Positions 28,573-37,772 of a stretch of 64,000 nt of DNA are shown here, piece after piece. The notes beneath the pieces are model-generated. The model ran no database searches. It was given only the letters and a program-made list of their open reading frames with translations, and was not told the origin of the DNA. Position numbers and translations under genes: made by a program. Each line of letters starts with the position of its first letter. The stretch's first letter is position 1. This DNA is from Candidatus Heimdallarchaeota archaeon (GTDB lineage Archaea; Asgardarchaeota; Heimdallarchaeia; Heimdallarchaeales; Heimdallarchaeaceae), in assembly GCA_030603365.1 (NCBI GenBank), contig JAUVXV010000001.1:96001-160000 (forward strand), in the 5' to 3' direction.

Positions 28573-29658
28573 ATGGGTGGAATACGAAGACAAAGAAAGA
28601 AAATTATGACTCCTGGTCATCCTTATGATAAAATTCGTATTGATCAGGAATTACCTTTAGTTGGAGAATACGGTTTAAGAAACAAAAAAGAACTGTGGAA
28701 AGCAAGAACTGTTCTATCTAAGGCTAGACAACAAGCTCGTGCTTTACTTGCACTTCCAGCAGATGTGAGAAAGCAACGAGAAAACGAATTACTATTTCGT
28801 TTAGCTAATCTTGGTGTGCTTCCTCCAGGTAGCGACCTTGACTCTGTTCTAGCGCTAGAGGTTCGTACTGTGTTGAATAGACGACTGCAAACCATAGTGT
28901 TTAGAAAAGGGCTCGCAAGTTCGCCTTATCAAGCAAGACAGTTTATTGCGCATAGACATATTGCTATTGAAAGAGCTGTTGTTACCTCTCCAGGACGTCT
29001 TATTAAAATCAATGAAGAAGAAAATATTGACTATGCTCCCCTATCTCCTATGCTAGAGAAATCACATCCTGCTAGACCTCAAGCACCTCCTGTTAGTGAT
29101 GAAGTGCCTCTTGAGAAGAAGGAAGTTCCTAAGAAGGAAGCTCCTAAACCCGAAGTTAAACCAGCTAAACCTGTTCCTAAGAAGGAAGTTGAAGCTCCTA
29201 AACCCGAAGTTAAACCAGCTAAACCTGTTCCTAAGAAAGAAGCTCCTAAACCTGAAGTTAAACCAGGCAAACCTGTTCCTAAGAAAGAAGCTCCTAAACC
29301 TGAAGTTAAACCAGGCAAACCTGTTCCTAAGAAGGAAGTTGAAGCTCCTAAACCTGAAGTTAAACCAGCTAAACCTGTTCCTAAGAAGGAAGTTGAAGCT
29401 CCTAAACCCGAAGTTAAAGCTGAACCTAAACCTCCAGCTAAACCTAAGGTTTCCAAAGTGGATGTTTCTGAAATAAAAGGCGTTGGAGCTAAAACTGCTA
29501 TGCTTTTGAAAGAGAATGGTTTTGATACTGTTAATAAAATTGCTTCTTCTTCTGACGAAGCTTTATCTAAAGTTCCAGGCATCGGTCCTGCTACTGCTAA
29601 AGCTATGATTAGTGAAGCAAAGAACATTCTGACCAAAGCTAAGGAGAAATCCAAGTAG
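28573..29658 (+). CDS. rps4: 30S ribosomal protein uS4 with Pro/Lys repeat linker and C-terminal HhH domain
   Basis: [28 protein letters not shown]; tail IKGVG...VPGIG. Confidence 0.95.
29116..29420 (+). repeat. 48/54-nt coding tandem repeat ((EV)EAPKPEVKP(A/G)KPVPKK), about 6 copies
   Basis: Near-identical GAAGCTCCTAAACCYGAAGTTAAACCAG... units. Confidence 0.93.
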
Positions 29659-29666
29659 GTGATTGT

Positions 29667-30341
29667 ATGAGTGAAGAAAAAGCTAAAACTAAACAAGAAG
29701 AAAAGAAGGAAGCAAAGCCGGATAAGAAGTCAGATAAGAAGTCAGATAAGAAAGCTGACGCTAAAGAAGACAAGAAAACTGACGCTAAAGAAGACAAGAA
29801 AACTGACGCTAAAGAAGACAAGAAAACTGATACTAAAGAAGACAAGAAAACTGACGCTAAAGAAGACAAGAAAACTGAAGCTAAAGAGGAAACAAAGCCA
29901 GAAACAACAAGAGAAGATTCTAGAAGATCAGAAGCAAGATCTCGAACCTCTAGAAGAGACTCTAAATATGGTGTCGCTCACATCTTTTCCAGTTACAACG
30001 ATACAATCGTTCATATCACCGATATCTCAGGCGCAGAAACATTCAGCCGTAAAAGCGGAGGAATGTTTGTGAAAGCTGACAGAAATGAGTCCAGCCCATA
30101 CGCAGCAATGAAAGCAGCAAACGCAGCAGCAATGGAAGCACAAAGTAAAGGAGTGTACCAACTGTATGTGAGATATAGGGCACCAGGAGGACATAAAAAT
30201 AGAACTCCAGGACCAGGAACACAAGCAGCACTAAGAGCACTGAAAAGATCAGGAATGAGAATACTAAGACTAGAAGACGTGACCCCACTTCCTCATGATG
30301 GGTGTAGGAGGAAGGGGGGCAGACGTGGTCGTCGAATGTAA
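29667..30341 (+). CDS. rps11: 30S ribosomal protein uS11 with N-terminal charged repeat extension
   Basis: [48 protein letters not shown]. Confidence 0.97.
29721..29885 (+). repeat. 12-nt (DKKS, about x3) then 24-nt (DAKEDKKT, about x5) coding tandem repeats
   Basis: GATAAGAAGTCA and CTGACGCTAAAGAAGACAAGAAAA units. Confidence 0.93.
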
Positions 30342-30378
30342 TCTCTCCTTTTTTATTTCTTTTTTCATTTTCATTTTT
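30342..30378 (+). terminator. T-rich terminator after rps11
   Basis: TCTCTCCTTTTTTATTTCTTTTTTCATTTTCATTTTT. Confidence 0.55.
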
Positions 30379-30429
30379 GTATTATTTGAGTTTATAATCT
30401 AATTTCTGTATTGAATGAATGAATATTAG

Positions 30430-30816
30430 ATGAATAGTGATTCAGAAACCATATTACATGTCTGTGACATTTGTCAGAAATCTTTCAAGCGGAGATATTA
30501 CTTGAATAGGCACATTGATGCTGTACATGAAAATCAAAAGGTTTTTAGATGCTCATATTGTAATTTTCAGACTTCAAGGAAAGATGCTTTGGATAGACAT
30601 GTTAATCAAATCCATATAACAAGCAGAGTTCATAAATGCAAAAAATGCGGGGAAACATTCAAGCAAATAGGAAATCTCTATAGACACACCAATACTGTGC
30701 ATACAACTGAAAAGAGATTTCAATGTAAAGACTGTTTTTCTTCTTTCTCAAGAAAAGATAATCTAGAGAGACACATAAAGAAATTTCACACATCAACCAT
30801 ATCAGAGGAATATTGA
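30430..30816 (+). CDS. C2H2 zinc-finger protein, 4 tandem fingers
   Basis: Four CxxC-x12-H-x4-H units with classical spacing. Confidence 0.92.
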   Translation: MNSDSETILHVCDICQKSFKRRYYLNRHIDAVHENQKVFRCSYCNFQTSRKDALDRHVNQIHITSRVHKCKKCGETFKQIGNLYRHTNTVHTTEKRFQCKDCFSSFSRKDNLERHIKKFHTSTISEEY

Positions 30817-31988
30817 GTATGAGCTCCTCTACGAAATCTAGTTTTGAATGTGAAATTTGTGGAAAAATACTCTCGAGAAAAGATTTACTTACACGTCATA
30901 TTAAGTCTGTACATCAAAAAATTAAATATCCATGTCCTGAATGCTCCTATGTTGCTAACAGACAAGATTATCTAAAACGTCATATGAATGAAGTGCATCT
31001 TAACCTTCGTTCTTATGTTTGTGAGTTCTGTGGGATGAAGTTTAATCAATCTGGAACTATGAACAGACATATAACAACAGTTCATAAGAAAGAGAGAAAT
31101 TATAACTGCCCTGAATGTGAACCTGTTTTTTCTCGTAAGGATCAGCTTCAAAGACACATAAGAGCTGTCCATCTAAATCTTCGACCTTATATCTGTAAAG
31201 AGTGCGGTGCCTCCTTTAAGTTACCCAACCATTTGAAGCAACATCACATATCTATCCACACTAACCAACGTAAATATGTCTGTGAGGAATGTGGTTTTGC
31301 ATTTAAGTTATCACAGCATCTTAACGATCATATCAAGGTTGTTCATCAAAATCATCGTCCTTACGTGTGTGAAGAATGTGATGCTTCTTTTCCCCATGCT
31401 CGTAATCTTAAGTTACACATCATTGCTGTGCATACTGATGAGAAACCTTACGTTTGTGAAGATTGTGGTAGAGGTTTTGCTGATCCTAGTCATTTATATA
31501 AGCATAAACAAGCTGAAGCTTGTTGGTTTACAACTACTACTGCTTACAAATGGGAGGAACTCTGTAAAGAGATAGCAGAGGTTTTACTAGCTGATGAAGA
31601 TTGGAAGTGGAAACCTAAGATAGACACTCCTGAGCTAAAGAAACAGAGCTGGATTCAGCCTGAAATAATTGTATACTACGAAAATAATACGAAAAGAATC
31701 ATTGATGCTAAGAGATCTACTCAAGCGATATTCAAGGAGAAGGATCTGGTAGTATATCCAAAAGTGGCTGAGAAAGTGGAGTTCTGGTGCCTCTATGGTA
31801 AAACTGAGGGAATGTTTGATGAAAAGGAGGAGATGGAGGCTAAGGGTAGTGAGGAGATTATTGCAGAGTTGAAGAAAAGGAAGAATAAAAGGAATAAGAA
31901 TTTGATTGGCAATCTGATAATGAAGGTTGAGATGCTAAAGAAAGGATTAGAATTCAAAGGACAGAGATTACTTATTGATTCTTCCTAA
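30813..31988 (+). CDS. 8-finger C2H2 array (7 C2H2 + 1 C2HC) fused to a putative PD-(D/E)xK nuclease-fold domain
   Basis: Fingers with linkers such as TDEKPY; C-terminus WEELCKE...IQPEIIV...IIDAK. Confidence 0.8.
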   Translation: MSMSSSTKSSFECEICGKILSRKDLLTRHIKSVHQKIKYPCPECSYVANRQDYLKRHMNEVHLNLRSYVCEFCGMKFNQSGTMNRHITTVHKKERNYNCPECEPVFSRKDQLQRHIRAVHLNLRPYICKECGASFKLPNHLKQHHISIHTNQRKYVCEECGFAFKLSQHLNDHIKVVHQNHRPYVCEECDASFPHARNLKLHIIAVHTDEKPYVCEDCGRGFADPSHLYKHKQAEACWFTTTTAYKWEELCKEIAEVLLADEDWKWKPKIDTPELKKQSWIQPEIIVYYENNTKRIIDAKRSTQAIFKEKDLVVYPKVAEKVEFWCLYGKTEGMFDEKEEMEAKGSEEIIAELKKRKNKRNKNLIGNLIMKVEMLKKGLEFKGQRLLIDSS

Positions 31989-32025: not shown

Positions 32026-34503
32026 TTATTCGTTGGATCTTCTTTCTTCTTCATATTTTTGTAGAAGCTGCCCAGCTTCATCAATTGTGCTTTTTATTTC
32101 ATCTGGATAAAAGGAGTAGAACTGTTCAGCTAACTTGAACCATTTTCTCAATTCACTGAAAGGAATTTCAGTTTGATGAATTAGTAATTTAATTACGAAA
32201 TATGGCATTTCACCGCCTTTTTGTGGTAGTTGCTCTCTCAAAGACCAAGCAGTTGTATAATCTTTTAGAGCATATTCAACATTCTCTAATTCTGCATGAA
32301 ACTGTGCTCGATTATAATGCACTAATGCATTTTTATCATTTAAAACTAGTATTTTATTAAGCTCGTCAAATGCTTTTTCCTTTTCATCTAAACCCCAAAG
32401 TGTAAGTCCCCTATTTAGAATTGCCTCTTCATTCTCTGGTTCTAATTCTATGACTTTTGTAAGTAAATCATGGGATTCTTTAAGTCTTCCCAGCCTTAAT
32501 AATAGGGTTCCTTTGTTATTATAAGCTGTTGCATAGTTTGGATTTACTCTTATTGCACTATCATAATCTCTAAGTGCTCTGTTTGAATCTCCGCGTCTAG
32601 TATATTCTAGTGCTCTATTATTATAAGGATCCACATATTCAGAATCTAGTTCAATTGCTTTATTGTAGTCTTCCAATGCTCTTTCATACTGTTCTAAATG
32701 ATATAACACTCTACCTCTATTGTTGTATGCTATGGGGTCATTTTCATTAAGCTTAATTGCTTTATTATAATCATTTAAAGATTCAGCATGCTTTCCTGTA
32801 TCATCTAATACTTTACCACGATTAATATAGGCTTTTGTGAAATTGGGGTCTATTTCTAACGCCTTATTGAAATCATTAAATGCATCATCGTATCTTTTTA
32901 GATTTGAATAAACAATGCCTCTGTTGTTGTATGTGCTTGCGTTATTTGGATTTAGTGCAATTGCATTATCACACAATCGTAAAGCTGTTTCCCAATCACC
33001 AGTTCTTATATAAATAACTGATTTATTATTGTAAGGATCAGAGTTACTTGCATCGAGTTCTATAGCTTTATCATAATCTTCAATTGCTGAAGAAATGTTT
33101 CCAGTTTTTTGGTTTGCATTTCCTCTATTGTTGTAAATCCCTGAATTATTAGGATCTAAATCTATTCCTAAATTGTAATCTTCTATTGCTTTGTCAAAAT
33201 CCCCAAGCTTTTCGTATACATATCCTCTGTTGGAATAATAGTATGGAATACCGTCCTCTAAACCTATAGCTTTAGAAAGAACCTCAAGTGCCTTTTCATC
33301 AAAATTCAGTTTTAAGTAAGTAGCTGCCAATGAATTCAAATAATTTGATGATTCTTCTTTCTCAAAAAAAGACACCATAAAATTGAGATCCTCTATTAGA
33401 ACTTGTTTTTCTTCAGGATAATCCCATATTACTCTTTGCAAATAGATTTCAGGTATGATGATTTTTTCATCTTTAACTCTGTAGAAATCAGCAAGTTTTA
33501 GGTCAGTATAAATCTCTCTCCATTGATTTCCAACGGAAAAATGCTCTCTTGCAACTGTAGATAACAAAAGAACTGGAGGATTAAATATATTGGATATAAC
33601 AAAAATCTTTATTGCTTTAAGGAAATTTTTCTGTTTAGAATTCAAATTGTTATATTTCTTCTTTTTTGATACAGTGTCAAATACCAAATCACCAGGTTCT
33701 CCACTGTAATTGTCAATTTCAGTTTTTATTTCTAATAAGTCAGCTAGAATTCTCCATTCTGTTTTTGTTAATTCTGGTATCTCTACTCTATAAGGAAATA
33801 GTTTTTCGATATCGTCTCTTTCATCTAGAAATGCGTCTCTTCTAGCAATTGTTTTACCAGCAAGAAACCACTCTTCTGATTGGCAAGTACATATTAATTG
33901 GATATGACTAGAAATTTTCCTGTATTTCTGAATTACAGCATTTAAACTTGTACCTTCATTCAGAAGTTTTACCGTTATTTTATCTATATCATCAAATAAA
34001 AGAATGATGAAATTCCATTTCTTCATGAAGAAGTTGCGATAGGTTTTTTGATTGAAATCACTATCTTTATTCAATAAAATCAGTTTCGCTTTTTGAAAGC
34101 ATTTTGTTGTATTATCAACTTTCGCTTTATCTATTACTAATTTGCGAATAACTTCAATAGATGTTCTTGTTTTACCTCTAGCAATTGGAGCAACTACTCT
34201 AACATCATTTCCTCTTTTAAGTCTAGAGTATAATTCTCTCTCTCTTTTGTCAATAGAGACATATCTGGAATCCCATTTATCGAAAAACAAGCTAGACAGT
34301 TTTCTTCTGATTCTTTTCTTCTTATCTATTTTCTTCTTGAGATATTTTGTTTTCAAAAAAATACCATTGTTTTTAAATTTAATATAGTTTAAAATGCTTT
34401 TAGTAGGTATTGCTAATAATGGTGTAAAAATAGCACCTAAAATCGATCCTATTATGGTTGATGTCCAGTCTCCCATTCTTGTATCCCTGATTTTGTTATT
34501 CAT
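32026..34503 (-). CDS. N-terminal TM + degenerate P-loop NTPase + long TPR array protein
   Basis: APIARGKT, LLFDDID; about 11 repeats of the YNNRG...A..DY.KAIELDP type. Confidence 0.85.
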   Translation of the reverse strand: MNNKIRDTRMGDWTSTIIGSILGAIFTPLLAIPTKSILNYIKFKNNGIFLKTKYLKKKIDKKKRIRRKLSSLFFDKWDSRYVSIDKRERELYSRLKRGNDVRVVAPIARGKTRTSIEVIRKLVIDKAKVDNTTKCFQKAKLILLNKDSDFNQKTYRNFFMKKWNFIILLFDDIDKITVKLLNEGTSLNAVIQKYRKISSHIQLICTCQSEEWFLAGKTIARRDAFLDERDDIEKLFPYRVEIPELTKTEWRILADLLEIKTEIDNYSGEPGDLVFDTVSKKKKYNNLNSKQKNFLKAIKIFVISNIFNPPVLLLSTVAREHFSVGNQWREIYTDLKLADFYRVKDEKIIIPEIYLQRVIWDYPEEKQVLIEDLNFMVSFFEKEESSNYLNSLAATYLKLNFDEKALEVLSKAIGLEDGIPYYYSNRGYVYEKLGDFDKAIEDYNLGIDLDPNNSGIYNNRGNANQKTGNISSAIEDYDKAIELDASNSDPYNNKSVIYIRTGDWETALRLCDNAIALNPNNASTYNNRGIVYSNLKRYDDAFNDFNKALEIDPNFTKAYINRGKVLDDTGKHAESLNDYNKAIKLNENDPIAYNNRGRVLYHLEQYERALEDYNKAIELDSEYVDPYNNRALEYTRRGDSNRALRDYDSAIRVNPNYATAYNNKGTLLLRLGRLKESHDLLTKVIELEPENEEAILNRGLTLWGLDEKEKAFDELNKILVLNDKNALVHYNRAQFHAELENVEYALKDYTTAWSLREQLPQKGGEMPYFVIKLLIHQTEIPFSELRKWFKLAEQFYSFYPDEIKSTIDEAGQLLQKYEEERRSNE

Positions 34504-34648: not shown

Positions 34649-34705
34649 GGTGGCCGTAGAGGCCGCAAAATGTAAAATCTACATTTTTCACTTTTTTTAT
34701 TTTTT
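34649..34705 (+). repeat. Orphan copy of rps11 3' end (GGRRGRKM*) plus T-rich terminator; att-like scar
   Basis: GGT GGC CGT AGA GGC CGC AAA ATG TAA versus rps11 GGG GGC AGA CGT GGT CGT CGA ATG TAA. Confidence 0.8.
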
Positions 34706-36966: not shown

Positions 36967-37256
36967 GCTGAATCTATCTTTATCGATTCTACGTAAGTTT
37001 CCAGGAGTGCATACTGTGAGGGAATAGAGATAATCCTAGTCTGTTTGTTTACTTTTTGTTGCATTTTTAGTGACACTAACTATTTATTTAAAATTAAAAC
37101 TAAATAAACAATTTGTAGAATTTAATAATATTCCATTATACTATACATTAAGTGAATAGAACGTAGAACGCAATTTTACATTTTACATTTTTCATTTTTC
37201 ATTTTTCTTTTGATTTGGTATTATTCTTATATATTGAAATAATCTACCATTTCTCA

Positions 37257-37718: not shown

Positions 37719-37772
37719 AGCGGTTGTAAATGCCGTAGGATGTAGGTTTTCTACAATTTCACTCTTTTTTTA
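37719..37772 (+). repeat. Degenerate orphan copy of rps11 3' end (SGCKCRRM*) plus terminator
   Basis: AGC GGT TGT AAA TGC CGT AGG ATG TAG then TCTACAATTTCACTCTTTTTTT, similar to the sequence after the 34649 copy. Confidence 0.65.

Follow-up and report, generated by a model that had tools for sequence, protein, structure and literature searches.

A zinc-finger protein encoded beside rps11 in a Heimdall archaeon is predicted to read synonymous positions of its neighbour, in the register of a putative zinc-finger nuclease

We analysed a 64,000-nt stretch of DNA (hereafter the window; positions 96,001 to 160,000 of contig JAUVXV010000001.1, assembly GCA_030603365.1, 3.65 Mb, 33% G+C), the proteins of which have relatives that public sources name as Candidatus Heimdallarchaeota or Heimdallarchaeaceae. 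Directly 3′ of the ribosomal protein gene rps11 (uS11) lies a gene for a small protein with four C2H2 zinc fingers, ZF4, and 2 nt beyond its stop codon begins the gene for a larger zinc-finger protein, ZF8 (start ATG 30819; alternative TTG 30813). The gene order is secY (minus strand), rps13, rps4, rps11, ZF4 and ZF8, followed by a P-loop/TPR gene (minus strand), a YaaC-like gene, two unknown genes and housekeeping genes. The features at the centre of this work are as follows.

29667–30341, plus strand: rps11 (uS11) open reading frame; Pfam Ribosomal_S11, E 1.6e-42; Lys-rich N-terminal repeat extension and eukaryote-like C terminus.
30283–30294, minus strand: site A, GAGGAAGTGGGG, antisense of rps11 codons T-P-L-P-H (ACC CCA CTT CCT C); best-supported putative ZF4 site.
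30283–30306, minus strand: predicted 24-bp register of ZF8, antisense of rps11 codons T-P-L-P-H-D-G-C plus the first base of the next Arg codon.
30308–30319, plus strand: site B, GAGGAAGGGGGG, in rps11 codons R-R-K-G-G (AGG AGG AAG GGG GGC); in inverted orientation to site A, from which 13 bp separate it.
30430–30816, plus strand: ZF4, 128 amino acids; four C2H2 fingers and no further domain.
30819–31988, plus strand: ZF8, 389 amino acids; seven C2H2 fingers and one C2HC finger, then a predicted C-terminal nuclease domain.
31518–31985, plus strand: predicted PD-(D/E)xK (restriction-endonuclease-like) domain of ZF8, from an AlphaFold2 model, structural matches and an invariant motif.

Both proteins are classical C2H2 arrays: the fingers of ZF4 have the spacing C-X2-C-X12-H-X4-H, and Pfam PF00096 finds four units in ZF4 (E 2.1e-21) and eight in ZF8 (E 9.7e-45). 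They are the only C2H2 arrays in the whole genome, so no multiple testing arises from a large set of finger proteins. In the recognition code of the Zif268/Sp1 type, as given by Wolfe, Nekludova and Pabo (2000), residues −1, +3 and +6 of a finger helix specify the 3′, middle and 5′ base of a triplet, read antiparallel. An earlier reading of the bare sequence (the original prediction) had applied this code to the helices RRYYLNR, RKDALDR, QIGNLYR and RKDNLER, obtained GAG GAA GNG GNG and proposed as target the sequence that we call site B. We recovered the same helices from the open reading frame 30430–30816 and the same 12-mer from the R-R-K-G-G codons of rps11. It is unique in the genome and lies 111 bp before the ATG of ZF4, and its G-ending codons are indeed unusual, AGG, AAG and GGG making up only 12%, 27% and 10% of their families. 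A caveat attached to the proposal, that finger 2 would prefer GTG to GGG, proved apt: site B has one mismatch to the code prediction, at finger 2. The degenerate motif GAGGAAGNGGNG has 2 matches in the window, where 0.07 are expected, and 8 in the 3.65-Mb genome, and is thus not common genome-wide. The second window match, site A, had been overlooked; it lies 25 bp upstream of site B on the opposite strand and contains the GTG that finger 2, with Ala at +3, prefers.

The case for site A is comparative. The C-terminal protein sequence encoded by rps11 is invariant in relatives and its codons are variable. The reverse complement of ACN CCN CTN CCN C is G-N-G G-N-A G-N-G G-N-G, such that the fixed first and second codon bases set the frame GNG GNA GNG GNG, which is also the prediction from the conserved −1 and +6 residues of fingers 4 to 1 (R..R, Q..R, R..R and R..R), and each of the four wobble bases takes the middle position of a triplet, which the +3 residue of a finger contacts. 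With a single fixed textbook code table applied to all genomes, the +3 residues of all 13 small zinc-finger proteins (13 genomes and contigs, six classes) fit the wobble bases of their own genomes at 31 of 31 determinate and 19 of 20 semi-determinate positions. Taking one representative per class, 15 of 15 determinate residues fit (N with A, H with G, K with G, A with T), and permuting the six representatives reached the observed total in 1 of 720 arrangements. Measured over the whole 12-mer, the own-genome allele has 0–1 mismatch in each of 11 small proteins, against a mean of 3.3 for non-cognate alleles. Two close relatives display a compensatory change in finger 4, with RKDSLLR opposite GTG in one (genome G007) and RKDNLLR opposite GAG in the other (L042). 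Where the Leu codon is TTA, the +6 residue of finger 2 is N, as the code predicts; where it is TTG, the residue is K, a code mismatch. In five-finger forms, finger 5 follows the wobble base of the His codon. The covariation between helices and rps11 tail codons that the original prediction had called for therefore appears at site A and is absent at site B. In silico, ZF4 reads site A by the canonical code, with recognition through −1, +3 and +6 at 3 bp per finger in antiparallel orientation and with its +3 residues matched to the wobble bases of its own genome.

Sequence scans place the same site apart from its background. When 4–10 kb of each locus was scanned with the pattern of its own small protein, 8 of the 11 loci gave a single zero-mismatch match, that of the site A register, invariably on the minus strand and 58 nt short of the rps11 stop. 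Across 7.3 million genome positions, the bare frame has 25 matches, two of which adjoin the ZF4 gene. The refined motif GAGGAAGTGGNG has 3 matches in the whole genome; the other two, at C2:58731 (in an apparent ABC-ATPase coding region) and C15:372828, were taken as chance.

The target codons also stand out within rps11 itself. Among 32 distinct rps11 sequences compared over a 126-codon core, synonymous codon diversity is greatest in the stretch of eight codons at −20 to −13 relative to the stop, where it reaches 0.90 (median, 0.49). Of 38 four-fold columns, those of the T, P, P and G codons take ranks 1, 2, 4 and 5. Just upstream, at codons −52 to −21 from the stop (about 30186–30281), synonymous sites are unusually uniform across the 32 sequences.

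The association with rps11 extends through the genus (25 species genomes). A zinc-finger gene lies directly 3′ of rps11 in all 20 same-genus genomes with a homologue, as the original prediction required. Orthologues of ZF8, at 62–81% identity, directly follow rps11 or a small zinc-finger gene in 20 of 24 other genus genomes, and in 11 of 21 a gene for a small protein of four or five fingers separates rps11 from the nuclease gene. The closest orthologue of ZF4 (in G023) is 74% identical and has the same contact residues in fingers 2–4, with H for Y at +3 of finger 1. Elsewhere rps11 is followed by other genes (G003, G018/L047, L041, L046 and L048), which amounts to a presence/absence polymorphism with intact empty sites. 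Tail alleles are shared by distant ZF8 lineages, which hints at recombination. In two nuclease-only loci (L045 and L024), finger 1 of ZF8 is nearly identical to finger 1 of the small protein of a sister lineage (L042 and L023). Some nuclease-only genomes may have lost the small gene by a deletion that fused it to ZF8, as their sequences suggest.

The C-terminal part of ZF8 (residues 236–391) has the order alpha-beta-beta-beta-alpha-beta in an AlphaFold2 model with a pLDDT (predicted local distance difference test) of 80.6. Pfam gave no match to this nuclease domain at E ≤ 1. Its top structural matches are almost all PD-(D/E)xK nucleases, including AF1548 (Z 9.3), Can2 (8.0), BspD6I (7.2) and FokI (6.2); the best of the top matches in the VIA search, at Z 9.3, spans 107 residues with a root-mean-square deviation of 3.1. 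Foldseek agrees weakly, and R2 endonuclease structures are among its matches (weak, E about 0.01). All 23 sequences compared, some with as little as 34% identity, share E13, P48-E49 and D63-A64-K65, the positions of which agree with the secondary structure of the model: the core fold is present, and with it the acidic residue of helix 1, the D/E that opens strand 2 and the (D/E)-x-K of strand 3. The domain is a predicted PD-(D/E)xK nuclease domain of a separate, Pfam-less family. It is a rare domain: 1.84 billion proteins yield 48 representative clusters. Of 10 representatives tested, 8 join it to C2H2 arrays and the remainder to other DNA-binding repeats. The same genome encodes a second protein with this domain (contig C3, 43751–44185; 41% identity; open frame of 537 amino acids) and without a C2H2 array; proteins like it also occur in G012, G013 and G008.

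The fingers of ZF8 point to the same place as those of ZF4. A frame pattern, NNCNNNCNTNNTGNGGNAGNGGNG, was built from family-conserved residues only (D at −1 of finger 8, D at +6 and L at −1 of finger 6, L at −1 of finger 5, and the frame of fingers 1–4). It has exactly one match in the 3.65-Mb genome, at 30283–30306 on the minus strand, a predicted long recognition site in the conserved gene next door of the kind that homing endonucleases have. In silico, ZF8 reads the register of ZF4 extended to 24 bp, and ZF4 is a nuclease-free paralogue of ZF8 fingers 1–4. The +3 residues of ZF8 do not match the resident allele, fitting at 8 of 38 determinate positions (chance level) and 6 of 42 semi-determinate positions (below chance), and resident alleles have 7–10 mismatches of 24. 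Compared with the allele of a contig devoid of zinc-finger genes (L048), ZF8 of G009, G005 and G024 has 0 of 15 and 2 of 24 mismatches.

Other candidate targets of ZF8 were tried and set aside. The full eight-finger code pattern of each ZF8, scanned over its own locus, gave nothing under 7 mismatches; the top match usually fell in the rps11 register, to which the frame alone had led it, and ZF8 is by this measure not matched to the resident allele. Fingers 5–8 placed on the rps11 tail or on an orphan copy of it reached at best 2 of 12 mismatches, in three genomes and inconsistently, and whole-genome scans with ZF8 code patterns returned chance-level matches only (for example, C7:39228).

A second zinc-finger nuclease, in genome G012 (L116 4871–6028, contig C175), has the same nuclease domain, eukaryote-like H-X3-H fingers and TGEKP-type linkers, and lies tail-to-tail with the ferredoxin-like gene fixX. 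The best locus match of its predicted 24-mer has 4 mismatches (next best, 7) and falls on the fixX C-L-E-C-A-T-C-R codons, a Cys motif, at L116 6101–6124, 73 bp from the stop of the nuclease gene. As background, 4 mismatches to this 24-mer are reached at one site in 7.3 million positions of the genome of the window. The pair would be an independent replicate of a nuclease reading an adjacent gene.

Downstream of ZF8, the window contains copies of the rps11 3′ end:

34649–34675, plus strand: orphan rps11 tail copy (GGRRGRKM*), followed by a T-rich stretch; near the genus consensus tail.
37719–37745, plus strand: decayed orphan tail copy, after a 163-amino-acid gene.
About 37158–37190: still weaker tail copy.

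Similar orphans follow the zinc-finger block in G009 (L017) and G012 (L029, 27 of 27 identical); the functional and orphan tails of the window share only 18 of 27 positions. Orphan tails with T-rich stretches separate three blocks, namely ZF4-ZF8-TPR, the YaaC-like gene with a 401-amino-acid gene, and the 163-amino-acid gene. In related contigs the gene directly after rps11 is the 163-amino-acid gene (L041) or an MBL-fold gene (L046); every block thus behaves like an insertion of its own. Between 30342 and 37800, open reading frames and a Pfam scan revealed no integrase, transposase or recombinase genes; the domains found were zinc-finger, TPR and YaaC. The block has neither the tyrosine or serine recombinase and identical core repeats of an integrative element with att sites, nor the TniQ domain and TnsA/B/C genes of Tn7-like elements. 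Homology with the orphan at 34649–34675 starts at about the K-G-G codons of rps11, near site B as the original prediction had noted. The nuclease domain follows finger 8 and should therefore lie over the R-R-K-G-G codons, at the start of this homology and at site B.

We consider it somewhat more probable than its rivals combined that ZF4 is a sequence-specific double-stranded-DNA-binding protein whose cognate site is the antisense of the T-P-L-P-H codons (30283–30294), not primarily site B, and that it binds the resident allele at the register of the nuclease of which it is a nuclease-free paralogue. ZF8 would be a free-standing, homing-endonuclease-like gene beside its target; the resident rps11 allele would escape it by synonymous recoding, and ZF4 would occupy that allele at the nuclease's own register, most likely shielding it competitively as an immunity factor and perhaps controlling the ZF4-ZF8 operon as well. 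Together the two proteins resemble a naturally occurring zinc-finger nuclease and a partner that lacks the nuclease. Among the functions that the original prediction had offered for finger binding at the insertion site, protection of the occupied allele fits best, given that the nuclease reads the same register and is mismatched to the resident allele, and targeting of insertion is the least supported. Its broader idea, that the fingers read the rps11 3′ end beside a variable insertion point, is supported, also by the rarity of the motif and the linkage of zinc-finger genes to rps11; site B as the main target is not supported.

Several observations weigh against this interpretation. First, the recognition code is approximate and we used a simple table: the Y at +3 of ZF4 finger 1 has no assignment in it, and of the cognate pairs two have one mismatch each, I opposite G in G017 and, at +6, K opposite A in G007. 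Second, heavy transcription of the operon that contains site A may make stable occupancy difficult, and ten genus genomes have the nuclease without a small zinc-finger protein, which makes a shield not obligatory. The resident allele already has 4–6 mismatches to ZF8 in the 15 bp of fingers 1–5, which might alone suffice for immunity, and the fit of ZF8 to the L048 allele, as the best of 34 alleles, is modestly significant (by rough estimate, about 0.01–0.03). Third, small and large zinc-finger proteins diverge in parallel, as vertical inheritance would have it. Upstream of the target, synonymous diversity is just as low in genomes that lack zinc-finger genes, and synonymous identity by region is the same for pairs of genomes with and without such genes, which gives no specific support to co-conversion. 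Finally, nuclease-only genomes have mostly Leu TTR codons, which break the frame, and genomes with nuclease and small protein mostly CTN. The difference was entertained as an alternative route to immunity; it is suggestive by genome count and not significant at the level of clades (4/1 versus 2/4).

The strongest rival holds that ZF4 purely controls transcription of the ZF4-ZF8 operon, like a C (controller) protein or an autoregulating antitoxin, the shared register being merely a legacy of duplication of the nuclease fingers. Gene order suits a controller, with ZF4 first in a two-gene operon and 2 nt before the ZF8 start, and a likely promoter element of this operon, put forward on its sequence, is present:

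30391–30398, plus strand: TATA-like TTTATAAT, 32–39 nt 5′ of the ZF4 ATG.

Relatives have similar TTTATAT(T)C motifs at the matching place 5′ of the first zinc-finger gene, and site A lies upstream of this conserved element. Covariation, moreover, reports selection for binding and is silent on its purpose, and ten genomes do without ZF4. Yet site A is 97–108 bp upstream of the TATA-like box, inside a coding region, and does not overlap the promoter; competition for the target explains more simply both the register shared with the nuclease and the nuclease's systematic mismatch to the resident allele. Controller and shield functions are also compatible. A purely regulatory role is, in our judgement, unlikely, though it keeps an appreciable share of the probability.

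Far less probable is the original prediction in its own form, with GAGGAAGGGGGG at 30308–30319 as the functional target and ZF4 recognizing the insertion junction itself. Besides the presence and uniqueness of the 12-mer, its location is attractive, at the expected position of the nuclease domain and the start of orphan-tail homology and tail-to-tail with site A as an inverted pair; fingers 1–4 of ZF8 from G021 fit it with one mismatch. It nevertheless requires three particular synonymous choices (the AGG, AAG and GGG codons) and shows no covariation, in addition to its mismatch at finger 2. Only 4 of 35 related rps11 genes have it: those of the window, of G021 and L037, both of which lack a small zinc-finger gene, and of L044, the 3′ side of whose rps11 is not known. 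It is missing from G023, the 74%-identical ZF4 orthologue of which keeps the contacts of fingers 2–4. Site B is a secondary, lineage-specific site with one mismatch, not tied to the presence of a small zinc-finger protein.

ZF4 might instead select the target for insertion of cassettes 3′ of rps11. In Tn7, TnsD/TniQ recognizes glmS at the 3′ end of its coding region and guides the element into the DNA immediately downstream. The rps11 locus resembles this in that the 3′ coding end of a conserved gene is recognized, in our prediction 47–58 nt before the rps11 stop, with foreign DNA (variable cassettes with orphan tails) just downstream, and C2H2 fingers serve site choice in Asgard archaea: the nearest report to ours describes Asgard Tn7-like elements with a TniQ that carries C2H2 fingers (10.1101/2025.07.27.667033). 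One of the genomes compared (G032, L117 3417–4874) encodes a 485-amino-acid protein with a TniQ-like N-terminal part, judged by eye, and six C-terminal C2H2 fingers, followed by an 819-amino-acid gene; it may be of that type. Two loci that lack zinc-finger genes (G003 and L041) carry GTG GGA GAG GTG, which fits the five-finger class, and a third (L046) has the close variant GCG GGA GAG GTG. The rps11 block differs in having no TniQ domain, TnsA/B/C or other Tn7 transposition genes, transposase or integrase. A selector of naive sites, furthermore, should read invariant bases, whereas the ZF4 family tracks the species-specific wobble bases of the occupied allele, and the small and large proteins co-diverge vertically. 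We regard a selector role as very improbable.

That the match is coincidental, ZF4 binding elsewhere or not binding DNA at all, is barely credible: the code is approximate, R-x-x-x-x-x-R helices generally favour G-rich purine runs and part of our analysis was post hoc, but the 15 determinate fits across six classes with their permutation result, the unique perfect matches in the locus scans and the mere 25 frame matches per 7.3 million positions, two of them beside the ZF4 gene, all speak against chance.

If ZF4 is, as we favour, a partner of ZF8 that binds the resident allele, the pair can be set beside several known systems. Engineered zinc-finger nucleases, which join a C2H2 array to the FokI domain, have the same layout of an N-terminal array at 3 bp per finger and a C-terminal domain of restriction-endonuclease fold, with a predicted cut beside the 5′ end of the G-rich strand and, in this window, an inverted second half-site across a spacer. 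ZF8 differs in being natural, in having a nuclease of a Pfam-less PD-(D/E)xK family (FokI, Z 6.2) and in its nuclease-free paralogue alongside. Free-standing homing endonucleases with ‘intronless homing’, of the phage T4 SegF/SegG type, are encoded between conserved genes beside a target in an essential gene, with synonymous differences between resident and sensitive alleles. The ZF8 locus likewise lies between conserved genes beside an essential target, and is polymorphic for presence with empty sites; it differs in binding DNA through a poly-C2H2 array, where those enzymes have a GIY-YIG/HNH-associated domain. We know of no nuclease-free partner of SegF/SegG-type enzymes. The protein of R2 non-LTR (long terminal repeat) retrotransposons, with N-terminal C2H2/Myb and C-terminal restriction-like endonuclease domains, also uses C2H2 fingers to target a conserved gene of the translation apparatus near which a PD-(D/E)xK-type endonuclease cuts, as predicted for ZF8; here the differences are the lack of a reverse transcriptase at the ZF8 locus, the eukaryotic distribution of R2 and the weakness of the structural matches.

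For the small protein, the analogues are DNA-binding-only transposase inhibitors and the C proteins of restriction-modification systems, short proteins that share the specificity of an enzyme or precede a nuclease gene and restrain the enzyme. ZF4 differs from them as a separate paralogous gene the specificity of which has diverged from that of the enzyme to match the resident allele. As for the code itself, the pairings of Zif268/Sp1 type (R–G, Q–A, N–A, H–G, K–G and A/S–T) all hold in our covariation table; our proteins are archaeal, with H-X4-H spacing and non-TGEKP linkers, and the evidence is comparative rather than structural.

We found no description of a natural C2H2-nuclease in the literature searched. 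ZF8 points to a natural counterpart of engineered zinc-finger nucleases, and ZF4 to self-protection by a nuclease-free paralogue. More tentatively, and with somewhat less than even confidence, the locus could be a natural zinc-finger gene-drive-like element, in which a poly-C2H2-PD-(D/E)xK nuclease homes beside rps11 through wobble bases, an arms race recodes synonymous sites of the essential gene, and a finger-paralogue antidote evolves with the resident allele. The proposed pair offers an explanation of why synonymous diversity peaks so sharply within an essential ribosomal protein gene, and of the cassette hotspot behind rps11. Independently of purpose, the match of finger residues to wobble bases across the genus serves as a natural covariation test of the C2H2 code in an archaeon, archaeal C2H2 proteins having been described as poorly characterized, and it yields precise predictions of protein–DNA pairs, with 12–15-bp sites for 13 small finger proteins. 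If the gene-drive-like reading holds, Asgard archaea would use tandem C2H2 arrays, with the canonical code, in the setting of a selfish nuclease. With a Heimdall archaeon as host, of the archaeal group closest to eukaryotes, the finding bears on the origin of eukaryotic poly-zinc-finger proteins, the largest family of eukaryotic transcription factors.

The surrounding genes have features of their own. The P-loop/TPR gene 3′ of ZF8 (32026–34503, minus strand) encodes 825 amino acids, with a P-loop-like motif near the N terminus (APIARGKT) and eight or more TPR repeats; among the genomes compared, it follows ZF8 in this one only. On the other side, rps4 (28573–29658) combines a Pro/Lys-rich repeat region with a C-terminal helix-hairpin-helix domain, and the N terminus of rps11 (29667–29900) is a tandem KEDKKTDA-type repeat with a 24-nt period. 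The rps4 and rps11 extensions differ in length among relatives and coincide with contig breaks in many assemblies.

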